Shown here in pieces: positions 1,085-63,925 of a DNA stretch of 64,000 nt. Both the position numbers and the translations under genes were made by a program. This stretch comes from Isurus oxyrinchus (lineage: Eukaryota): contig JANJGN010000041.1 in assembly GCA_026770705.1 (NCBI GenBank), positions 4,774,001 to 4,838,000 of the forward strand, read 5' to 3'. Numbering within the stretch: position 1 is the first letter of the stretch; each line of letters starts with the position of its first letter. The notes under the pieces were generated by a model. That model did no database searches and had not been told where the DNA came from. It saw nothing but the letters and a program-made list of their open reading frames with translations.

Positions 1085-1960
1085 CATTCCTGGGAGATTT
1101 ATAAGCACGGCGCCTTCCTGCAATCATTTCTCCACCCTCAGCGATGGGCTGTAACAGTTTTGCAGGGACTCCTTGATGCCACATTCAGTCAAATGCAGCC
1201 TTGACCTCTCACCTCACCTTGGGAGTTCAGTTTTTACGGTGAATAAGGCTGCAATGTTGTCAGGAGCTGAGTGGCCCTGGCAGAAGCCAAACTGTGCATC
1301 CATGAGCAGGTTATTGCTCAGTAATAACATTGTCGGCGGCACTTTCTCTCATATTGCTGTTGATTTAGAGGGGATTAAAGGGCCTATATTGGCTGGGCTG
1401 CTCCTGTCCCGCTTAATGTCGGCTGAACATAACTGGGCATGATTACACTTTTCTGGGTTGATGCCTGTGTTGCAGCTGTAGTGGAAGAGCTCGGCTTGGG
1501 GCACAGCTCGTTCTGCCATGATATTGCTGGAAATGAGGTCAGAGCCTTAGGCCTTTCCAGTATCCAATGCATTCAGCACTTCATGACCTCACATGCAGTG
1601 AATCGAACTGGCTGAAGACAAGCATTTCTGGTGCAGGAGATCTCAGCCTTACCTCTTGCACTGATGTGGTGAACACGCCCATCATTGCTGGTGGGGATTT
1701 TTGTATAGACTCCTCTCCCTTTCAGTTACTTAATTTCCCACCAACATTGACAACTGAATGTGACAGGGCAGCAAAAGATAGATCTGATTCGTCGGTTGCA
1801 GGTGTACGTAACTTCTTCCTTTGCTCGCTGCTCTCGCTCTTTGACATGCAATTATTCCTGCGTTATGGCTTCACCAGGTTGACCCCTGATTCTTATGTCC
1901 CACTCCTGGGATGCGCTCCTGAAACCTTCAATGAGCCAGGCTTAATTATTTTCCCCATCC
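1085..1960 (-). mobile_element. CR1-group LINE RT fragment (degraded, internally deleted)
   Basis: Minus strand gives KAAFD*MWHQ near 1173-1204 and a QFGF..GHSAP-like motif near 1260-1300. Confidence 0.75.
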
Positions 1961-2024
1961 CTGCTGTTTTCATGATACTGGTGGACAGGGTCTATTTGAA
2001 GTCTATGTGGTTACTGTTGTTGCA

Positions 2025-2487
2025 ATGAAGATTTGCCTGTGGCTGATTAATTTGGGAATTTGTTGAAGTATATTATCGTCATGATGTGGAGCAATATGTA
2101 TGTCTTTAATTTGTTGTTAAGTTAATAAATGGTTAATTAATTTTTATTTATAAATCGCAAGAATTGGTGGTCTTGTTCCTATTAAATTCAAAGTCTGCAT
2201 TTCGAAATGACAAACTGCACAATTGGTTCATGACAGTTGTTTCAGGTTTTCCGCTGAGATTTGAATAACACAGACTTTACAATTGCCTTTGTCAGACTAG
2301 ATTAGGTTTTCTTTTTAGTTAATGAATAAACATCTTTTTAACGTTAAATACCCCAAACATATGACTATACTTGTTGCTGCTGATATCAATAGGTTTTCAT
2401 CTAATTACCAGAACACAGCAATAAGGTAAGCCAAGTTTCCGCCTGGGATTTGGATTGAATAACAATTAACCTGCTCTGGTCACGACA
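2025..2487 (+). mobile_element. Two tandem LTR 3'-end fragments preceding a Gypsy internal region
   Basis: 2025-2300 resembles 5000-5263 (gaagattt...gaatttgtt...AATAAA...cagttgtt). The second piece ends ...GGTCACGACA at 2487, followed by TGGGGG at 2492, a degenerate tRNA-Pro-type PBS. Confidence 0.55.
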
Positions 2488-2489
2488 AA

Positions 2490-5400
2490 TTTGGGGGATA
2501 TCTGTGGCATTATTTACATTCGTTCTTTGGGATGGGTGTTATGAATCCAAGGAATACGAGTCCATGAAGAACACTGAGCTCAGGAGTTTTGTGCCGAGGC
2601 ACCTTTAAGTTTGGAGAAAAAAAAAGGCTTTGGCAGTAGCTATGCCTTTTCTGGGAGTGAAAATGTTACTGTGAAGCATTGAAATCACTGACTAAAACTC
2701 AGCTGATTGTGTTATCTGAAAAGTGCAGGTAGAGATAAAAGTGGAATTTCATCGGGATGATATGATTAAAACTCTTAAAGTTGTAGGAAGGGGCAAGTGA
2801 GACTAATGTGCCTCAGATAGAAGTGGAAAGACTTCAATTGCAAATTCGGAAGCTTGATCGAGAAAGAGAAAGCAAAGACAAAGGCATAAATTGTCAGAAA
2901 GAGAAAAATGTGAGAGAATAAAAAATAATTCAAATTACAAAAAAATGTGAAAAACAATAAATAAAACTTTAATAAGAAAAGGACAGGTTAAAATAAGTAG
3001 CCATTAAAAACCTTGTATGGAGAAAGGGGAGCTGGAAAAAGGAAAATAACGTAAAACAAGAGTTAGAACTGCAAAAGTTAAATTTCAACTTCAGAGAGAG
3101 AAGTTATCAATTGGTAAAAGGAATAAGAAAGAGATAGAGCGCTTCAGAGAGGCAGATGGCCTACAGTGTGAATTGTTGAATGTATAACTTAGAAAAAAAA
3201 AGATAGTGATTCCTTTGAAAAATTTACTTTAATAAACATCTTCGGTTAGTGTCTAAATTAAGGGAGGATGGTTTCGAAACATATTTTGCCTAAGTTGTAA
3301 AGGTCGCAATGGAATTGAATTGTGTAATAAATGTTCGGACTGTAAAGAAATAATTTGTTTGCTAGGTACAAGCTTATCAGAGGAACAATCTGCATATAAC
3401 GAGATAATAAAGAATGCACTACTACATGCTGATGAGAGTGTTCTATCAGTAGTTGGGAAGTACAATAAAAAAGATTCCTAATCAGACGTGCTGAGTTGGC
3501 AAAAGAAAACAGAAATGACCTGGGATCAATGGTTCAGGGCATTGAAATTAGACAAGACTTTTGAAAAAGTAAAAGACGTTATGATTATGGAAATATCTAA
3601 AAATAGCATTCCTGTAAATACTGAGGCGCAGGTAAAAGAAAAACAAAGCCATAAAGAACAGCCAAGCTGCTGTTTTAGCTTGTGTGACCCATATTACAGA
3701 TTATCAGTTGAATGCAGGAAAAATGCAAGATGGAAATCAGCAGGGAAATTGGAGATGAAGCAAAGCAAGTCATGATGAAAGCGTTGGGAAAAGATTCAAG
3801 CTGAAGGGCGTCAGCCTATAAAATATCGAACGGTGGAAAGTAGCATTGAAGGGAGGAAACTGGTAAGTTAACACTATTGAAGTTGAACATATGAGATCAA
3901 AATGTTGGAGGTTCAACGGGAGACCAATTTCACTGACAGGAACGCAGATCAGTTTTGCAATAAGCCTATGGTGAGCTCCGAGGACGTTTTGCAAGATAGA
4001 CCAATATATTATTTTTTGAACAGTTGGAACAGGCAGAATCAGTGGTAGCTAGAGAAGTGGGAATGCGTTCTCAACTTACCCAAGGGAGTCTTGAAGGGCA
4101 GGTTACAGAGAAGTTTAGAGATTTTACCTGGAAAGGAAAGGAATATCCATGTTAATTAGGGGGAAGCAGGAAACAATGCCAAAATGTCAAGGGACAAGAG
4201 TGCTAGACATTCCAAAATATTCTGGAAGAGTGTCATTTGTTTTACAGGAGGTTAATTGCTGGAGCGTGTTAATTCGTGGGATCATTGGAGGAGTCAAATC
4301 TGTTTCATTGTATCAAGTAATTTTAAAAACAATGAATTGCTATCAAGGGAAGTGTTTGAGGGGGTCATAGAGGAATGGCTCATGCAGCGTTAATTTTAGT
4401 CTGCGGAATGATATTTCCGGCTCACAGGTAATGACAATTACTTGACATTAAGAGATTAATGTCGACAATGTTATAGGAAATTGTTTAAAAACTGGAATTG
4501 TTGTAGTGTCTGTGTCTATGTTTGTGACTGTGTCTCTTAACTGGATGAAGGCCACCTCGGCTGGGTGATATGATGCATTGTAGCTTGGGGTTTTCATTAG
4601 ATAAATGGGAGCAGTAAAAGGTAAAATGGAATGCACATTTGTTGAATAAACCATTCAAAGGAATGGAGAAAACCTTGCACCAAGCTAGGTGACTCAAAAC
4701 AATATTGCTAATAAAATTGGTGGAATGAAACGATTACTGTTAGGAGAAGAAAAGTAAAATAATAAAAACTTGTAATGCAATTGGAAATTTGCATTCAAAG
4801 GGAAAGCTAGATTTAAATAGAAATGCGTTTGTCTGTACGAGTCACAGACAGCTAAGGTCAAACCAGCCTGTTCGCCTGGAACTGTTTCTGCAAAATAAAC
4901 AAATTGAAATGAGCCGCATTTTGAATTTGTAAGGTCAGATTTGCTTGGCCTGGTGTCGATTCAAAGTCTATCAGTTATTGGTGCCTTGGCCTTGCTGAAG
5001 ATTTATCTGGGAGCAATTACTTTGAGAATTTGTTTAAAATGTATTACGTTAATAATTTTTAGACATGTGTAGATGTTAAAATTTGTTGTTAAAGTAATAA
5101 ATGTTTACATTAGTTTGATATTAAAAAAACTTCTGATTATTGTTGGTTTTATTTCTGAATTCAGACTTGCATCTAAATCATGCCAGTAAGGCCTATGGCA
5201 GTTGTTCAATTTTCCATCTTGAATTTAAACAACTGAGTATTTATCAACTGCTGCGTCTTAATAGCCAATTGTAGTGGGACAGCCTTTTGAGACACAATCA
5301 GTAGAGTTTGTACAGACAGAGAATCCTGGTTTGTTTCCAAATTGTCTGGTGACTAAACCATAGGTGTGCACGTTTACGCATGAAGAGGAATAACCTAACA

Positions 5401-7365
5401 GAAGGGCAGACAATGCTGAAATTCAGTGGCTGGATAAATCTTTGAAAATATTGCTCAGGAGGAGAGGGTTGAAAAGGATGAGAGTGAAGTATTGAGTTCA
5501 TTAGTGGAGCTACATTTGCAGTGTCCAGTCGTAATGCAGAAAAAAACAGACAGTTTATTCTGCAGCAGAAACACAATGCATTACAGATTTTAATTACATT
5601 CAGAACAATGTGTTAATGAAGAAATGGAGGCAGCATCTTGCCCGTGCAGACGGAAAGTGGGAGTAAAACACGAAGTAGTGATACCATCTGTGTACTGGAA
5701 TTAAATTTTGAGAGTGCCACATAAAATGCAAATCGCTGTACTTGTGGGAATTACGAAAAGCCAAACTAATTACAACGGAAAATTAGGCTATTGGACTTGA
5801 CTACATAGAGATGTAGCCTAATTCTGTCAAAAAAATCGCACATGTCTGGTGAAAGGAAACACATAATGCATCAGTTAAACCTCCACATATAATTCAAATG
5901 CCACCGTTTGTGAAACCATTTAACATTGTTCATATTGATTGTATAGGACAGCTACCCAGGCTAAAAGTGGGAATCAGTACTTACTGACAATCATATATGT
6001 GTCCACAAGATTTCCAGAAACTTAATTTTAAGCTAAAGTGCAGCAAAGTTGATTGTAGTGGCGTAAATTATTACATGATAAGGATTACCAAAAGAAATAC
6101 AGTCTGAGCAGGGATCGAATTTCATGTCACAACTGTTTAGATAAGATATGGATAGCCTAGGAATAAAACAATTTATGACGTCACAGTGTGTCTTAGAAAG
6201 TTGATAACAGTTCATAAGCACTATAATGAGCGTCAGTGATCAAGAATATCCACATGGTTGTTTACGAGGGATTCCATTCTTGTTGTTTTCCATTACGGAA
6301 ATCCTTAATGTGTCAACAGGATTCAGTCCTTTTGAGTTAATTTATGGTCATGAACTGAGGGAAAAGTTCAACCTGATTCAGAAGAAATTAATGGGTCAAA
6401 ATTCAGGAAGTATTTTCTTGGAATATATGGCAATGTTCAGAGAAAGTTTAAGGAAGCCACGTGAGCTAACAAGGAAACAATTAATTATACCTCAGCAAGT
6501 GACAAAGTCAAATTCAGCTGAAAGGGCGGAGGCTCTTAGTTTCTTGGCTGTTGGCAGAGTAATAGTTTTGTTGCTAGTGATAGGTGAACATTTGAAGGCA
6601 ATGTTTAGTGGGCCTTGCCAGATTGAAAAGGTACTGATTGTGGTAACTATGTGGTAAATAAACTCATGTAGAAGGAAATGCCGGCGACTGTACCATGTAA
6701 AAGTGCTTAAAGATATTTTAACCGACATGATAAACAGAAAGAGTTACAGCTATTTGTAAGTAAAGGAACAGAGGTAAAGCATAAGCGTTCTGAAACTGAC
6801 CTACCTCGGATTTAATTGAATATTGAGGAAGGACTTACGAACATAAATGTGTGGTTAGGTTCCCTTCCACCAAAGCGTCAGAATGATAGAAAAGAACGAT
6901 TGCAGTCATGCAAAGCTATTATTGGTAATAAATTGTAGAAAGCATCTTTGGTTGTACATAACACTGAGGCGGGGAATTGAGCTTCAATAAGGCAACACGG
7001 ATATAGATGAAATCCTATAAAATTACCTAAAGTGCGTGAGGAAATTGAATTCCTGCTTCAGAATAACATGAAAGGGCCTAGTCACAGTAATTGGAGTTCA
7101 GCCATTGTTATGGTGTGGAAAACAGATGGGATAAAAGCACAATGTATTAGTTACCGAAAAATGAACGCGATAAGAAAGGCAGATTCATATCACAGGCGAC
7201 GATCAGATGAGCATATCAAGAAAGTCGGACAGTCAACACCTACCACAAAAAAATCCTTGCTGCGAGGGTATTGACAAGTACTCTTAACTGAAAGTGCATC
7301 ATAATTTCAGATGCTGGATGGTCCACATCAATGCAAGTTATTGAACGCCCTTTGGCATGAAAAAT
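2490..7365 (+). mobile_element. Degraded Ty3/Gypsy internal region, order gag-(PR)-IN-RT (Gmr1-like), 3' truncated
   Basis: E/K-rich gag, then WDQWFRALKLDKTFEKVKDVMIME (~3520). Integrase: PFNIVHIDCIGQLP (~5916), GLPKEIQSEQGSNFMS (6082), STGFSPFELIYGHELR (~6313), FSGPCQI (~6604). RT: SNWSSAIVMVWKTDG..CISYRKMNAIRKADSY (~7085-7190), LLRGY*QV, PFGMKN (~7350). Many stops and frameshifts. Confidence 0.9.
4469..5263 (+). mobile_element. Solo LTR nested in the Gypsy pol region
   Basis: Begins TGTTATAG and ends GTCTTAATA (degenerate TG...CA inverted termini), with AATAAA near 5096. It splits host peptide NDISGSQVM (to ~4433) from PIVVGQP..GLFPNCLVT (from ~5265). Confidence 0.65.
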
Positions 7366-22419: not shown

Positions 22420-23129
22420 CTCTTGAGTCTCCTAATTTTGCTCGTCGCAATCGAGACACACGGCGGGCTGGTGCTATGCTAACTTTGACCAATGGACGAC
22501 AGGCGGCTCAGGTACAAGTCACGATCATTTATTCGAGCAATTGCAAGGACAGAAGCATCTCAAGGCATCATTGAATAACATACAGTCAAACTGCAATCAT
22601 GCAGCGTATTTTATACATTGCTGATGCCGTACAAGAACAATATTGAAATCCCCTTCTTGTCAGAATATGTGTTATGTCATACATGCTCTTTAACACCGGC
22701 AGACAACTCATCCCTAACCTGGCTGGGACCAACTTTCATTTCCTTTTTGGTTGAAATGATCACTTCATCTATGTTATTGTCATCTTCTGCCTCCAATCAG
22801 AATCCCAAGACCTGACTGCTTTTTGCAGGCTCTAAGGCTTTGCAATGTTCATCTGCTAACTTTAACTGTTAATGTGCTAGATAGCACCGGCTGCATGAAG
22901 TATTTAAATAATGATTCAATTTCAGCACATTCTTCCTGTATGACCACTAAGAATGACCAATTTTGGCCCTTTGCCTAGCCCGGATTCGCCAAATACAGGT
23001 GTACAGTCCGTTCCTTGTTGTACCAACAGACATTGATACTGGCCAGTTATACAGCTTTGCATTTAAAACTGCCATGGTCAGCTCGGCTGTATCATCTTGT
23101 CCTTCATTTGAGGCCTCAGAATTGTTAGA
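22420..23129 (-). mobile_element. Putative 3' LTR of an env-bearing endogenous retroelement
   Basis: On the minus strand it follows the polypurine tract AAAAGGGGGAGAAGAAG (23146-23130) and contains TATAAAA (22615-22609) then AATAAA (22533-22528). Distal boundary uncertain. Confidence 0.55.
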
Positions 23130-23149
23130 CTTCTTCTCCCCCTTTTACA

Positions 23150-24250
23150 TGCCTCCAGCTCCTCTTCTGTGACGCTCAGTCATGATGAATCAGGTAGGTG
23201 AAACATATAACAGTTATCAGCTGGATCAGAACCAGGGCATGGGAAATAATCCGAATCCACGGTTGCATTTGTACATTGGAGCCTCAATTCCACCGTCACC
23301 GTGAGGAGGAATCGACGTGCCATACCAGGTTATCGTTATGGCTTTCCATGACCTGGGTATTAATCCTTCCTCTCTTGTATGTTTAGAGCAGTTGTACATT
23401 TCCCAGGCTTGCTGGCACCTGCGGGTATAGGGACAACAATTGATTATGGATGGATCACATCGAGTTGCCCCAATGCTGGATCGTTTGCTGCCAAGCAGTG
23501 ACAAAATATCTCCTAATCCCCATGTAAGCAACATGGGTCGGTTTTTTTGCAGCACATGCAGTTTTCATTATACAACTTGCTGCTGCTTTAGATCCACACT
23601 TCGTTTCTTCCATCTCTGATATTGGGTGTGTGCATACAAATGCTTGGTCTCGAAACCGTACCCTTCTAATATTGTGCAAACTACATTCCATTGTATGTCA
23701 ACTGCTTATGGCAGAATGCCATGTTGCCTAACATAATAGTTTCCCCGCATCACCCCAACATTTTCGGCTCAATAAAATGTTCTGCTGGGTGTTGACGTAG
23801 GTATAACAGGTATCACTAAGTAAATGCCAATTAGCATGTTACAATTCACAATGCATTCAACATTCTTTCTACATACACGTGTTAAACCTCTGAGCTGGCA
23901 CGCAGCCAAGTCATGATTTTTATGTCGTGGACGGTGAAAAAAAAGTTCATTGGTTGCCCATGAAGCAACTGCATCTTTATTAATATCTTAAATTCACTCG
24001 GGCTTGTTCCAGTGTAAAGGGTCCATTGGTCCTGCAGACATAACTGCTGTTTGCGTAACCTGAAATATGTTTTGCTATACTGTTAAATTTATTGATAGAC
24101 TGCGCATGACCTTCGAGCACGTTCGCCATGTTATGAATTAACTGTTTCATGTCATGGCCTGTATTAAATTGGATGTCGTGAAATCCATGTCCCCGCTTAA
24201 AATTTCCTTAAACTGGGAGATCAAGGATTGGACAATTTTGTCAACAGTTT
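23150..24250 (-). pseudogene. Decayed viral envelope / class I fusion glycoprotein gene fragment
   Basis: Joined frames give: heptad-like DMKQLIHNMANVLEGHAQSINKF; CQLRGL..GIYLVIPVIP..FY*AENVGVMRGNYY; Cys-rich FVCTHP..KCGSKAAASCIM..THVAYMG.RRYFVT; TM segment PWIRIISHALVLIQLITVICFTYLI; then PPT and LTR. Confidence 0.65.
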
Positions 24251-24259
24251 ACAGGTCAG

Positions 24260-25680
24260 TGGACTTAACACAGAAGCTTCCCCACTGAAGCATTCTGAAG
24301 TGTCTCTCCATTTGAACAATAAGGCGATATTTTTCTTCCAACCAAAATACATAACCTCACAATTCTCCATGTTAAACAACATCTGGCAAATGTTGTCCCA
24401 TTCACCTTACTTGTCCATATCCATTTGTAAATATCTTATATCTTCATTACAACTTATTTTCCCACCTATTTTGGAATTATCTGTAATTTCAGCTATTGTA
24501 CATTCTATCCCACAACCAAAGTCATTCATAACGATTATATGTAGTTGGGCCCTAGGACCGAACCCATTAGAAACCCAATAATTACAGCTGGCCATCGGGG
24601 AAAAAAGAACCATTTACCCAGACTCCTTTCTTTCTGTTGGTTAGCCAATTCTCTCTCCAATCTAATATAATACCCCTGACTCCATGTGATGTACCTTGTG
24701 AATTAATCTTTTGTGCAGCTTCTTTTCAAAGGCCTTCTGCAGTGCAGAAATACAACATCCACAGTATCTCCATTATCCACTTTATTTGTCACATGTTCCA
24801 TAAACACTAGCAAATTACCGAAACACGAGTTATTTTCATAAAAAAATGCTGACTCTGTTGGATTTTATTTCGACGTTCCAAATGCCCCGTTAGTAATTCA
24901 TTAATAACGGTTTCCAACAATTTCTAAACGATAGATATTAAACTGGTTTAGAGTTTCCTAATTTCTGCCTCCACCAACCCTTCTGAATAAAGTCATTATA
25001 TTAATGTTGTTCCAATCCACTGTATCCTTTTTGGAATCCAGGGAATTTTGGAACGTAATAACCAACGCATTCACTATTTCTGCTGCCACATCCTTTACAA
25101 ACATGGGATTTAGGTCAACAGGTCCTGGGGACTTGTCACCCTTTAATCCAAAATGTTTGCTCAGTACGTTTTCTCTAGTTATGGTTATTGTTCTAGGTTC
25201 CTCCATCTCTATACCCTCTGCTCTGCCTGTTACGACTGGTGTGACAGTAGTTTCCTCCGCCGTGAAAATTGAGGCAATATATTGAGACTAAGCATATAGT
25301 GCCATTTCTATGTTCCCCACTGTTAACTCTCCAGTCCTACCATCCAAGTGACCAACATTTGCGTTTGCTACACTATTTATTTTTATATACTTTTGGAAGA
25401 ATTTGATATCACTTTTTTAATTTTGCGCTAGTTTACTTTCATAATTTTCCTTTGTTATTTTTATTAACTCTTTGTTCGTCTTTATAATGTTCCAAATCTT
25501 CCTGCTTGTCACTGACCTTTTCCATTTGGGATGCCTTAATTTTGGATTTTGTGTTGCCTTTAACCTCCTTGCTTAGCCCTGAAGATTTTTTCCCGCTCTT
25601 ACCATTATTCTTCCTCATTGGAACGATTGTTCTCTTTATTTTTGCGATTTGGCCAAGGCATTTTTGATAAGGTATTTGCA
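24260..25680 (-). mobile_element. CR1 LINE ORF2 (RT) fragment truncating the env gene
   Basis: GLKGDKSPGPVDLNPMFVKDVAAEIVNALVITFQNSLD and MNDFGCGIECTIAEITDNSKIGG (FADDTK block). Confidence 0.9.
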
Positions 25681-37500: not shown

Positions 37501-38785
37501 CACTTTTCTGAACATATATTAGTTTAAAGATTCAAATTGATTTCCCCATCACCTTCAATCTTTATCACGACCTTCCGCACTTGATATCCAGCAGAAATCA
37601 ATTTTCAGCTTCATATTTAAAATCACTTCGCACGGATGCTGTGCTTGAGATGCCCTTTCTGCCCTTTCGGCAATAAAGTGAATGGTTTTGCTGCCGATCA
37701 ATTAATGGGAACTCTGTCCTGTCTACTAGGAAGTAAAACGCTAGTTATGACCACAACACAATCACATCATCGAATTGGTCATTAACTTTGCTTTGCAAGA
37801 AATGTGCCCCTATGGCCAATAAACATTGCCCACTCAATCTGATAGCAATATCACCGTTCCCAGTCCGCCATTAAACTGCCCTCTTGATCAGCACTGACTC
37901 CACCCATTCTGCATAGCAATGTTGCTTCACACTTTCTGCAATGAATTAGCGATGCATTCACCTGAAATAATCCTGCACAATGCCCAGCCAGCATATCAAT
38001 CTAACATTACTCATTCTGACTTAAAACACATGACTGATCAGCTCTCATTCATGAATAAAACCACTCACTGTGAACCTGCATAAGAATGTCACTTTGTACT
38101 GAATGTCATTGTACCGCCACCGTGATAACTGCTGTGTAAACTTGCATTCGGCCTTGTCTATGCTGTCTTTTATGTAGCTCAGTGACCATTTTCTGGTCGT
38201 ATGTTTTTGCCATTCCATCTTTCATCCTCTCAAGCGTTCAGAGTAGGTTCGTGCTACTGGATAATATTTTACCTTCAAGCTGAAAGTCCTGTAGCACAGT
38301 AATGCTTCCCAGTACTTATCACAACTGTAGAACACCCAGCATGCATTGCACCAATACCTCTTCCAGAGTATAACTCAACTTGGCACAGATACTATTTTGC
38401 GTATTAATTTCCCATTTCACATTGTACAACACACATGAATTGCGACTTTGCACCTCCCATTTACCTTTTAATATTCACGATGCCCAGCCGTTTGTGTACT
38501 TTCAAATTTTCCAGGTCACATTCGCCCTCAGTAATCTCAATCATTATTAAACAATACTTGCCCAGTATACGTTGAATATGGTCATTTCAAATTACGAATT
38601 ATCAACTGAGGTTTTCCTTCCCTATCCATTTTGATTCGGTCCAGTTTAAATTTAGAACATGCTCGCCTCGGAATGTAGACTGTGCATATTTGGGATGAAT
38701 GCATAATCCTTTGCTGCAACAGGAACAAAATTAGTAATGTTTATCTGTGTCGTCTATCTCCTGCTCTCTTTATCCTCTCTTACAG

Positions 38786-39682
38786 TTAATCTTGTTGCGA
38801 TTGTGATTCTTTCCCGAGGAAACTGTGGCCTTTCCAAATGTATTACCCACTATATGATCGCCGTGGCCGTGGCAGATCTCCTGGTTGTTTGTGCTGAAGT
38901 CATACTGAAAAATACGCTAGATATTTATTTCCCTGTTTTATTCTTGACCACGAGCACGGTGTGCCCTCTAAAAGCGACTGTGACTTACGCAGTCATATCA
39001 GCCTCTGTCTGGTTAACAGTGGTGTTCACCTTCGATCGTTTTGTGGTCATATGTTGTCAGAAGCTGCGAAAAAAATATTGCACGGAGACAACAGCGGCAG
39101 CTGTCATATCAGTGGTGAGTGTGTTGAGTTGTTTGATAAACATTCCCTGGTACTTTGCGTTTGAAACTGCATATATAATGGACAATGTAAATCGTGGTTG
39201 TGTCCTAACACAGAATTTTTTCAATTCTGCTGAATGGGCTGCATTTGACTTGTTTACCATTATCCTGACGCCATGTGTTCCATTCATCCTAATTTTGTTG
39301 CTAAATGCTTTGACGGCTAGACGTATTTTGGCAGCCAGTAAAGTTCGCAGGTGTCTCCGTGTTTGCAGCAAGGATTCTGAAATAGAAAGCCGAAGAACGT
39401 CCATTATTTTACTCTTCAGTATAACCGGGAGCTTTATATTGCTCTGGACAACTCCGGTTATATATATTATCTCTTTGCATGTAACAGTCACATCGAATTC
39501 TGGCGCAAATGTGCTTCATGTCAGTTGGATCCATGCTTGGGATCCTCAGTTGCTGCACAAATACATTCATTTATGTGCTGACACAGGCTAAGTTTAGGGA
39601 GGAGCTGAAGAGCAGAATGCAGTACCTTGTGAAATTGTGCATAAAATTAGGCAAATTACAGTGGAATACCCGTTCACCTTAA
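38786..39682 (+). pseudogene. GPR139/GPR142-like class A GPCR, coding exon 2, frameshifted before TM7
   Basis: Acceptor ctctcttacAG ends at 38785. Peptide NLVAIVILSRGNCGLSKC, AVADLLVV, SVWLTVVFTFDRFVVICC, IPWYF, PCVPFILILLLNALT, ITGSFILLW. TM7 and helix 8 (VGSMLGILSCCTNTFIYVLTQAKFREELK) lie in the +1 frame from 39524, with stop at 39680-39682. Confidence 0.92.
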
Positions 39683-56419: not shown

Positions 56420-57135
56420 TCATCTCAGTTTGACACGATTGGAGCACTCTGAATATGGCTGGTCCCATATCCCTCACTTCTAACACAGTCTGGGGACCGT
56501 GTGCAGTGCTGATGTCTGTATCCCTCTGCAAGAGCACCCTTGGAGAACAGTGCACAGTTCTGGTCTCCATATCCTCGGTTAGATAACATTTGTAGCGCTG
56601 TGCACAGTTCTGGTTTCCATATCACTCGGTTAGACCACACTTGGAGCGCTGAGGACAGTTCTGGTCTCAATATTCCTCGGTTAGATAACATTTGGAGCGC
56701 TGTGCACAGTAATGGTCTCCATATCCCTCGGCTAGACCGCACTTGGAGCGTTGTGCACCGATCCGGTCTCCATATCCATTGGTTAGTCGAAGCATGGAGC
56801 ACTGCGCACAGTTCTGGTCTCATATGTGTTGGTTAGGCCACACTTGGAGTATTGTGAACAGTCCTGGTCACCATACCACTCGATTAGACCACGCCTGGAG
56901 CACAGTACACAGTTCGAGTGTCCATATCCCTCAGTTAGAATACATAAGGAGCACTGTGCACGCTTGTGGCCTCCATTAGCCTCGGTTCAGTTGGACCGCA
57001 TGCAGAGCACTGGAAGCAGCGCTGGTCTCAATATCTCATGTTTAGACAGTACATGGAGCACTGAACACAGCACTGATATTCCTATCGAGATGTTAGATCA
57101 CACTAGGTACACTGTGCGCAGCATTTGGCTCCAAG
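56420..57135 (+). repeat. 51-bp CR1-derived minisatellite, ~14 copies (array 2, opposite orientation to arrays 1 and 3)
   Basis: Unit CCCTCGGTTAGACCACACTTGGAGCACTGTGCACAGTTCTGGTCTCCATAT; translates LVRPHLEYCEQSWSPY at 56829. Confidence 0.92.
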
Positions 57136-62730: not shown

Positions 62731-63345
62731 CGAAGGTCTATCAGCGGGCCTCTGATTTTGAGGGTCTGTCTGGCAGAACGTACACAGGGGTGGCAACGGG
62801 TGAACCTAGGGCATTAACCATAAGGAAAAAAGACTGTGTTGGTGAATGTTTGGATCTAAAGAAAGACAGTATGGCCCGGCCATGACATCTCCTCCCCTCA
62901 CTCCCTGTCGGTAGGTTGATAGACTGATCTGAGTGAGAAATGAGACACGGATAAGAAGCGGTGATCAACACAGCCAGTTTTATGCACATGATCCAGAAAG
63001 CATTTGATCATTGGCCTTTAGACCTAGAGAATGATGCAGAGCCTGAACGACAGAAATTCCTATTTGCTTCAGTCGGAGTCTCAGGCGGGTCTTGCAGTGG
63101 GACATCCTGCCTCCGGGTTACTCAAAGAGGTTGGCAGCTCCTGAACTTGAAGCGGAGGTTGCATTTCCTGTTGGCCCTGTACGCATCACAATGCTCACAT
63201 GGGAGTCTTCTACAAAACATTCAACCCCCGTCACACGGAACGATCGGGAATGGAAAACAGAAAGGAAGAGCTCATTAGTACCGTTGGTCAGAACCGCTGG
63301 GCACCCGCATGCACCTGAAACGGTTTTGGCTTAAAGTGCATACAT

Positions 63346-63925
63346 GGAGACCCGATATGTGAACAGTGGTCCATATGTGGTCTAACCGAGGCATATGGAG
63401 ACCAGAGCAGTGCACAGTGCTTCAACTGTCGTCTAACCGAGGGATATGGAGACTGAACTGCGCACAGTACTCCGATTGTGGTCTAACCGAGAGGTGTTGA
63501 GACCAAAACTCTGCACAGTGCTCAAAGTGTGGTCTATCTGTTGAGTATGGAAACCAGAACTATGTACACTGTCCGACTGTCGTCTAACTGAGGGATCTGG
63601 CGATCAAATATATGCTCAGTGCTTCGAGTGTGTTCCAATCGAGGGGTATGAAGTCCAGAAAAATGCAGAGTGCTCCATGTGTGGTCCAAACGAGGGATAC
63701 AGAGGGCAGAACTGTGCACAGCGCTCTAAGTATGATCTTACCGAGGGATATTGAGATCAGAACTTTGCAGAGTGTTCCGAATGCGCTCTCAATGAGGTTT
63801 ATGGAGACCAGAAATTTTCACAGTGTTTAACGTTCTCTCTAAATGAAAGGATTAAAGATGGGAATTGTGCACAATGCTCTATCTGTGGTCCAACCGTGGG
63901 ATATGGAGTCCTGAACAGTGCACAA
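63346..63925 (-). repeat. 51-bp CR1-derived minisatellite, ~11 copies (array 3)
   Basis: Same unit and orientation as array 1. Confidence 0.9.

Follow-up and report, generated by a model that had tools for sequence, protein, structure and literature searches.

The window analyzed here, a 64,000-nucleotide stretch of the Isurus oxyrinchus genome, very probably holds a 3' fragment of a class III, SnRV-like endogenous retrovirus (ERV) with an F-fold envelope protein (Env), and an env of the same family at a second locus, C40, is most likely captured by the host. The window copy is a dead passenger, a non-functional relic; the likely domesticated C40 copy is the part worth following beyond it. 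On balance we favor a shark class III lineage with an F-fold Env, one Env of which the host has domesticated and uses for restriction or for cell fusion. Such a domesticated Env would not belong to the gamma-type class of syncytins, percomORF and the reported shark captures but would be an F-type fusogen taken over by the host.

The ancestral virus would have been a tRNA-Ser-primed gag-pro-pol-env retrovirus, its Env an F-fold class I fusogen. The window copy would be 5'-truncated and neutrally decayed, its multiplication a passive result of segmental duplication. At C40, purifying selection would have preserved env alone once the remainder of the provirus was dead, leading to host capture. 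The likeliest role of the C40 env, by analogy with captured envs (roles summarized in the available text of PMC8922424), would be to block a receptor against related viruses; cell fusion comes next. The anatomy, the copy family, the breaks, the dN/dS values and the fold match of a predicted model are observed; we infer the placement of the reverse transcriptase (RT) in an SnRV-like clade, the capture and the role.

Window relic and its duplication

Window positions 24269-22472 (minus strand) are the 3' end of an endogenous retrovirus, with an env remnant, an eroded polypurine tract and an LTR. This confirms the initial annotation in the main: its env and LTR are real, and the 5' edge is placed at 24269, where other sequence abuts. 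Three minus-strand frames between 22300 and 24400 hold, in the order it had given, a heptad-like stretch, an IP..Y.AENVG segment, a Cys block, a Trp-rich stretch and a hydrophobic helix. Frames and alignment to an unbroken env copy found elsewhere in the genome place the first heptad region (codons 304-401 of that copy) at 23981..24269, 5'-truncated at 24269; the model of the unbroken copy has long helices at 283-335 and 341-401 here. The beta-strand segment with the IP..Y..EN.G motif, assigned to F-core domain I from frames, alignment and model, lies at 23756..23834, and the cysteine-rich block at 23433..23660 would by position be F-core domain II, a name taken from the fold match. The alignment also shows that about 130 nt, the second heptad among them, are deleted at 23321..23324, a loss absent from sister copies 92-94% alike. 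Downstream are the tryptophan-rich membrane-proximal stretch (23268..23307, frames and alignment), the transmembrane helix (23190..23259, a hydropathy peak at 689-712 in the unbroken copy) and, again from frames and alignment, a short basic cytoplasmic tail remnant (23152..23187), all on the minus strand.

Over 1118 nt, corresponding to codons 304-725, the remnant is 76.9% identical to the unbroken env in the DNA alignment and carries seven stops and five frameshifting indels relative to it, the deletion of about 130 nt being one of the five. The furin site, signal peptide, N-terminal domain and second heptad are missing, and the dN/dS of the window env branch, 0.87, indicates neutral decay. 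A 112-aa open reading frame at 23229-23564 was rejected as a gene, being an off-frame reading.

The 481-bp 3' LTR (22472..22952, minus strand) has TATAAA at 22615 and AATAAA at 22533, the two signals that the initial annotation had noted. Its claim that a polypurine tract and LTR follow env directly did not hold in full, since about 200 nt separate env from the LTR and the tract is eroded. Alignment with five other copies puts the tract at 22953..22969 on the minus strand, at the LTR edge, with four of its six G residues replaced; the intact form is seen elsewhere, and the window LTR starts with TC, not TG. A purine run near 23147-23129 was considered as the tract and rejected, as it belongs to the env tail. 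Outside the provirus, the sequence abutting the truncation (24270..25400, minus) looks by eye like a degenerate LINE ORF2, which we take to be CR1-like; its frames gave no Pfam match.

A DNA search of the animal's own genome (4.98 Gb) gave 902 first-look candidates, and all 40 places scored matched at E below 1e-168, so the window match is not due to chance. Fifteen of the 40 sit on the window's contig, C41. The 5' truncation junction is common to all 14 distinct contig copies tested and the 3' flank to 13 of the 14, which indicates one insertion, spread by segmental duplication to at least 14 contig places. The contig copies fall into three age tiers (100%, 92-94% and 77-78%) with common junctions. 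The window also has a single-frame 7tm_1 receptor at 38707-39588 on the plus strand (Pfam E 5e-16; best PDB match GPR139, E 1e-9), and this suggests that the duplicated unit with the env relic belongs to an expanded GPR139-like cluster. Tandem repeat arrays with a 51-bp period occur in both orientations, at 187-600, 56471-57085 and 63344-63909.

Provirus family across the genome

Twenty of the 40 scored places were taken as 10-kb stretches, and 16 of these are dispersed. The initial annotation had proposed looking for fuller copies with pol, and such LTR-flanked copies were found, including an 8.9-kb provirus in which gag, pol and env follow in order, all broken. Paired LTRs are present in 10 of the 16 dispersed copies and are 82-94% identical (K2P 0.059-0.161). 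They end in TG...CA, and among nine copies compared an exact 4-bp target duplication was seen in three, a 5-bp duplication with a mismatch in two and no clear one in the rest. LTR dating is not informative, giving 13-37 My or 134-366 My by the rate chosen.

The family is tRNA-Ser-primed, with the order LTR-gag-pro-pol-env-LTR and with primer-binding site (PBS) and polypurine tract in sister copies. The complement of the primer site, which follows the 5' LTR, occurs 223 times in the genome, compared to once for a control, and the clustered matches tested were tRNA-Ser(AGA) genes in four of four cases. The first 12 pattern loci tested had no tRNA gene and are probably proviral PBS copies. Internal frames of the copies match RT and integrase in Pfam, and the Gag frames contain two Cys-His boxes. 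The nearest shark Gag homolog matches PF00098; the nearest Pol homolog, P0059 (RT 60% identical), has a tether (PF17919/PF17917) and an RNase H (PF00075) and maps along the pol of the copies. Together with the fold search described below, these LTR-flanked, pol-linked copies bear out the proposal that the relic comes from an enveloped LTR retroelement with an F-like env.

Many copies lack most of gag-pol yet have env. A short form of 5.3-6 kb (L015, L018, L020, L023, L024, L026 and L031), made of the gag start, the integrase end and env, has about 2 kb of unrelated AT-rich sequence instead of most of gag-pol and is a non-autonomous sublineage. Six copies (L018, L022, L024, L026, L030 and L032) have in common a deletion of env codons about 79-298, which implies that copies multiplied after env was damaged. 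Young Penelope-like insertions lie inside two proviral copies (L032, oriented positions about 1500-5250, and L023, 5076-6609); by eye they have a GIY-YIG-type frame, and their inverted arms are 98% alike.

Envelope fold and placement among retroviruses

One copy, L027 (locus G000:C40:8928251-8930431), has an open env frame of 727 codons. The protein has an N-terminal hydrophobic stretch predicted as a signal peptide, RDKR at 284 as a predicted furin site, two heptads predicted as helices and a single predicted transmembrane helix. The absence of CX6CC and immunosuppressive motifs, noted earlier from the broken frames, holds in this unbroken protein, where neither CX6CC, CXXC nor immunosuppressive-domain (ISD)-like motifs were found; gamma-type or syncytin-like features are thus missing from it. 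A Pfam search of this env gave neither a TLV_coat-type match nor a PF00523 match, and Pfam and PDB sequence searches with the protein and its 33-row alignment returned nothing meaningful. None of the env relatives, 42 in the full HMMER search, came up in word-index protein searches. Of 15 relatives looked up, 12 carry names; their hosts are sharks of five genera, one skate and three frogs. Full-length relatives (the P0007, P0011, P0040 cluster) are annotated as uncharacterised genes of the bamboo shark and frogs, and one frog has 16 near-identical relatives, pointing to a young family. An Atlas search with the unbroken env gave no result; with a shark env homolog one cluster without a name came up at 0.82, which is no more than a lead.

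The AlphaFold model of the L027 env, built from the 33-row alignment, has a mean pLDDT of 60.9 and a pTM of 0.44, with residues 13-199 under 50. Foldseek against the PDB placed RSV F (E 4e-11) and hPIV3 F (E 4e-10) at the top and also matched henipavirus F and Newcastle disease virus (NDV) F, in keeping with the F-like class I layout that the initial annotation had read from the relic; the TM-scores of the matches are low, 0.2-0.3 by query. In a second, independent aligner NDV F came out on top (Z 11.5, rmsd 16.8, 383 aligned), followed by measles F (Z 9.4); foamy Env reached Z 8.7, in a range (Z 8-9) where many rows are chance helical matches. Both methods assign the predicted model to the F core fold, and a predicted F-like fold is well supported for residues about 205-670, although the TM-scores are low. 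Against a library of viral structures the model also matched baculovirus F, glycoproteins of negative-strand viruses and feline foamy Env; SnRV Env was absent among the 50 fold matches listed. Env models of the walleye epsilonretroviruses WEHV1 (E 5e-11, rank 8) and WDSV (E 6e-7, rank 35) were matched as well, and the literature search found no paper stating an F-type match for them. Predicted fold is what L027 shares with these epsilonretrovirus Envs and with paramyxo- and pneumovirus F, at 10-14% identity; the latter have no extra N-terminal domain, unlike L027. The relic did not turn out to be a conventional gamma- or epsilon-type env or a cellular protein, and LTR-flanked, pol-linked copies do exist.

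From its N-terminus, the Env would comprise a signal peptide, a variable N-terminal domain of about 180 residues, probably receptor binding, an F2-like strand and helix, and the furin site. A fusion peptide, heptad 1, a beta-rich core with the Cys block, heptad 2, the Trp-rich stretch and the transmembrane helix would follow.

We assign the family, with moderate confidence and from motifs read by eye, to the class III, SnRV-like (clade Huo) retroviruses. The family RT shares W..DGS.RLTIDY, NGFW, YTWTRLPQ.FH and GCK..QYVDD with the SnRV row in the supplement of PMC7947760. As in SnRV, it reads LPQGFHNSP, where the two Loki rows compared there have PFGY.NSP, and a long loop precedes QYVDD. By hand count it is about 43% identical to SnRV and 34% to Loki in those rows. 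In an RT tree of 33 database rows (matches, among them no named SnRV, Loki or foamy sequence, with P0082 left out for short coverage), the family and sequences from sharks and the environment form a clade, and a 100/98 branch separates the family from a database sequence that has the Loki-type motif. The motifs, the count and this separation are the grounds for the placement. The comparison proposed at the outset, with lokiretroviruses, spumaviruses and Gypsy elements, gave SnRV-like motifs instead and a best PDB score to foamy virus. Viral contigs searched held no RT relative. SnRV and lineage I of the elephant shark ERVs (CmiERV-I), in the available text of PMC4422223, are like the shark family in RT motifs, gag-pro-pol-env order, host class and Cys-His box, a likeness set without Env fold, of which no description for SnRV or CmiERV-I was found in the literature searched. 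The shark family differs from them in its many copies that kept env without most of pol, and its Gag has two Cys-His boxes rather than the one given for SnRV in the consulted part of PMC2717909.

The main rival to the SnRV-like placement would put the family with foamy-like ERVs (clade Tu) such as the FLERVs of chimaera and frog, a reading we consider unlikely. Foamy RT is the best PDB match of the RT of the 8.9-kb copy (137 bits, ahead of MLV at 116, HIV-2 at 79 and Ty3 at 76), in a database without an SnRV RT as competitor, with the CmiFLERV sequence outside the comparison. The foamy Env likewise has an F-like core in a retrovirus (PMC11468914, available text) and is matched by the L027 model, and the env relatives come from sharks and frogs, hosts whose FLERVs cluster in the part of PMC5512871 seen. 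However, the family Gag has Cys-His boxes, which spumaviruses lack according to the same part of PMC2717909, and its env starts with a short signal peptide and has a single furin site instead of the retained leader and two cleavage sites described in PMC11468914, where the receptor-binding domain is inserted before the furin site and not N-terminally as in the shark protein. Still less probable is a lokiretrovirus, which would be the first in cartilaginous fish, lokiretroviruses being unreported in chondrichthyans in the accessible part of PMC7947760, where six such genomes were screened and none starred. The Loki Env described there is F-like, with signal peptide, RXKR site, fusion peptide, coiled coil and transmembrane helix, and its core resembles ours by eye in GP..G(I/L)V, R.KR, G.(I/V)P..(L/V) and GI(V/I)..(L/I)P..Y....VG. 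Against it stand the RT motif and the 100/98 branch already given, the extra domain of about 180 residues in the shark env, the lack of a PF00523 match, and the absence of an smc gene among the genes seen.

An env-bearing Gypsy element (errantivirus), or a stray paramyxovirus-like element beside an unrelated LTR, has a negligible probability. The fold matches do include baculovirus F and negative-strand virus glycoproteins, but env lies inside LTR-bounded proviruses with a retroviral RT, the nearest Pol homolog has a tether and RNase H, and PMC13524379, in the text available, reports no invertebrate-type env elements in vertebrate genomes; the linked pol refutes it. The carrier is thus supported as a true retrovirus, neither lokiretrovirus nor errantivirus.

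The initial annotation had suggested that the lineage might be undescribed in its host group. This stands only in part: SnRV-like ERVs with an env homolog are reported from a chimaera in the text of PMC4422223 available, which means that the host class was already known to have this lineage, and no report of the env fold or of a captured copy was found. SnRV-like ERVs are known in chondrichthyans and F-type Env is known from Loki and foamy viruses; their combination is a new variant. It adds an SnRV-like lineage to the lokiretroviruses and foamy viruses as carriers of F-type envelopes and, with the walleye match, favors an F-like fusogen as the old state of the retroviral Env, among the scenarios left open in PMC7947760 as far as that text was available.

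Intact env at the C40 locus

The L027 env is probably captured by the host, a candidate gene by its sequence record. Fifteen other dispersed env copies have 176 breaks in 25,854 aligned nt; 14.8 would be expected in L027, which has none (P 4e-7; with the rate of the least-broken copy, 1e-3). Of 6368 candidate places 61 were scored, and among these no full-length match but L027 is unbroken; other intact copies may exist among the rest. Its env branch has a dN/dS of 0.14, compared to 0.38-0.82 in the others. Within the provirus, env has a dN/dS of 0.10 (0.05-0.18) and pol 0.54 (0.39-0.81) at similar dS (0.20 and 0.21), and the 2162 nt of pol contain 23 breaks (13 frameshifts, 10 stops), a rate at which an env free of breaks has P 8e-11. 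The env frame is thus intact and under purifying selection in a provirus that has otherwise decayed. Constraint appears stronger on the F core (dN/dS 0.14-0.15) than on the N-terminal domain (0.31-0.44). The insertion, with its host flank, is also present in a second organism (B), where long contigs cover env in part, none with a gap. The argument for capture rests on the zero breaks, the low dN/dS against the decayed pol of the same provirus and the shared insertion.

That the L027 env is uncaptured, and intact by chance, through recent gene conversion or with a low dN/dS inherited from viral replication, is the less probable reading. The genome offers thousands of candidate places for a chance survivor, and in another old copy an env dN/dS of 0.19 is matched by 0.24 in pol, both genes broken, which shows that a history of viral replication alone lowers the ratio. 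Organism B differs at 9 of 428 nt in env and 76 of 2185 outside, a contrast that is not significant (one-sided P 0.09), the histone genes about 4 kb away mean that the region may be homogenised, and no RNA run was among the sequencing runs listed as matching; in two presumed-RNA runs, the short pieces were mostly 90-95% alike and so are paralogs, uninformative on expression. Against this, the same provirus has 23 pol breaks and the most diverged of 10 LTR pairs (K2P 0.161), no close intact donor was found among the 61 scored places, the L027 flanks are not repeated within 50 kb, and three of the four B-specific env differences listed are silent.

Capture being the preferred reading, L027 may be likened to Ovex1 of birds (available text of PMC2717909), an SnRV-related ERV under purifying selection (dN/dS 0.16) with an env-like frame lacking ISD and CX6CC; the likeness is by description only, and Ovex1 also kept Gag-Pol, has no signal peptide and has no fold reported in that text. 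Syncytins, percomORF and the chondrichthyan syncytin-like envs (bioRxiv 10.64898/2026.05.06.723177, part consulted) share with it a kept env, a decayed pol and presence in related species, but they are gamma-type, whereas the L027 env has no ISD or CX6CC and has a predicted F fold. The screen in that preprint required ISD and CX6-7C and so would miss an env of this type, and a second (bioRxiv 10.1101/2021.11.23.469661, likewise in part) covered gamma- and beta-type env only. Since such screens used gamma-type baits, a whole class of captured genes in sharks and fish may be missed. No F-fold env in SnRV-like or shark ERVs, nor a captured one, was found in the open literature, subscription papers being outside the scope; coverage is possible in Wang and Han 2020 (on gene co-option, as cited in the seen parts of PMC8922424 and PMC12813294), in Wang, Chen and Cui 2023 and in a J Virol paper on a cartilaginous-fish foamy virus. 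The intact, selected C40 copy gives a natural sequence for work on orthology, expression and structure.

Core and linker histone genes lie 4-9 kb downstream of the unbroken env (L059:2231-2653, 4638-5234 and 6520-7140). At oriented positions 6480-6580, L027 has, some 65 nt upstream of the env ATG, a branch-point, a pyrimidine tract and a CAG. Out-of-frame upstream ATGs of four other copies are absent in L027, and an overlapping frame could be an accessory exon.
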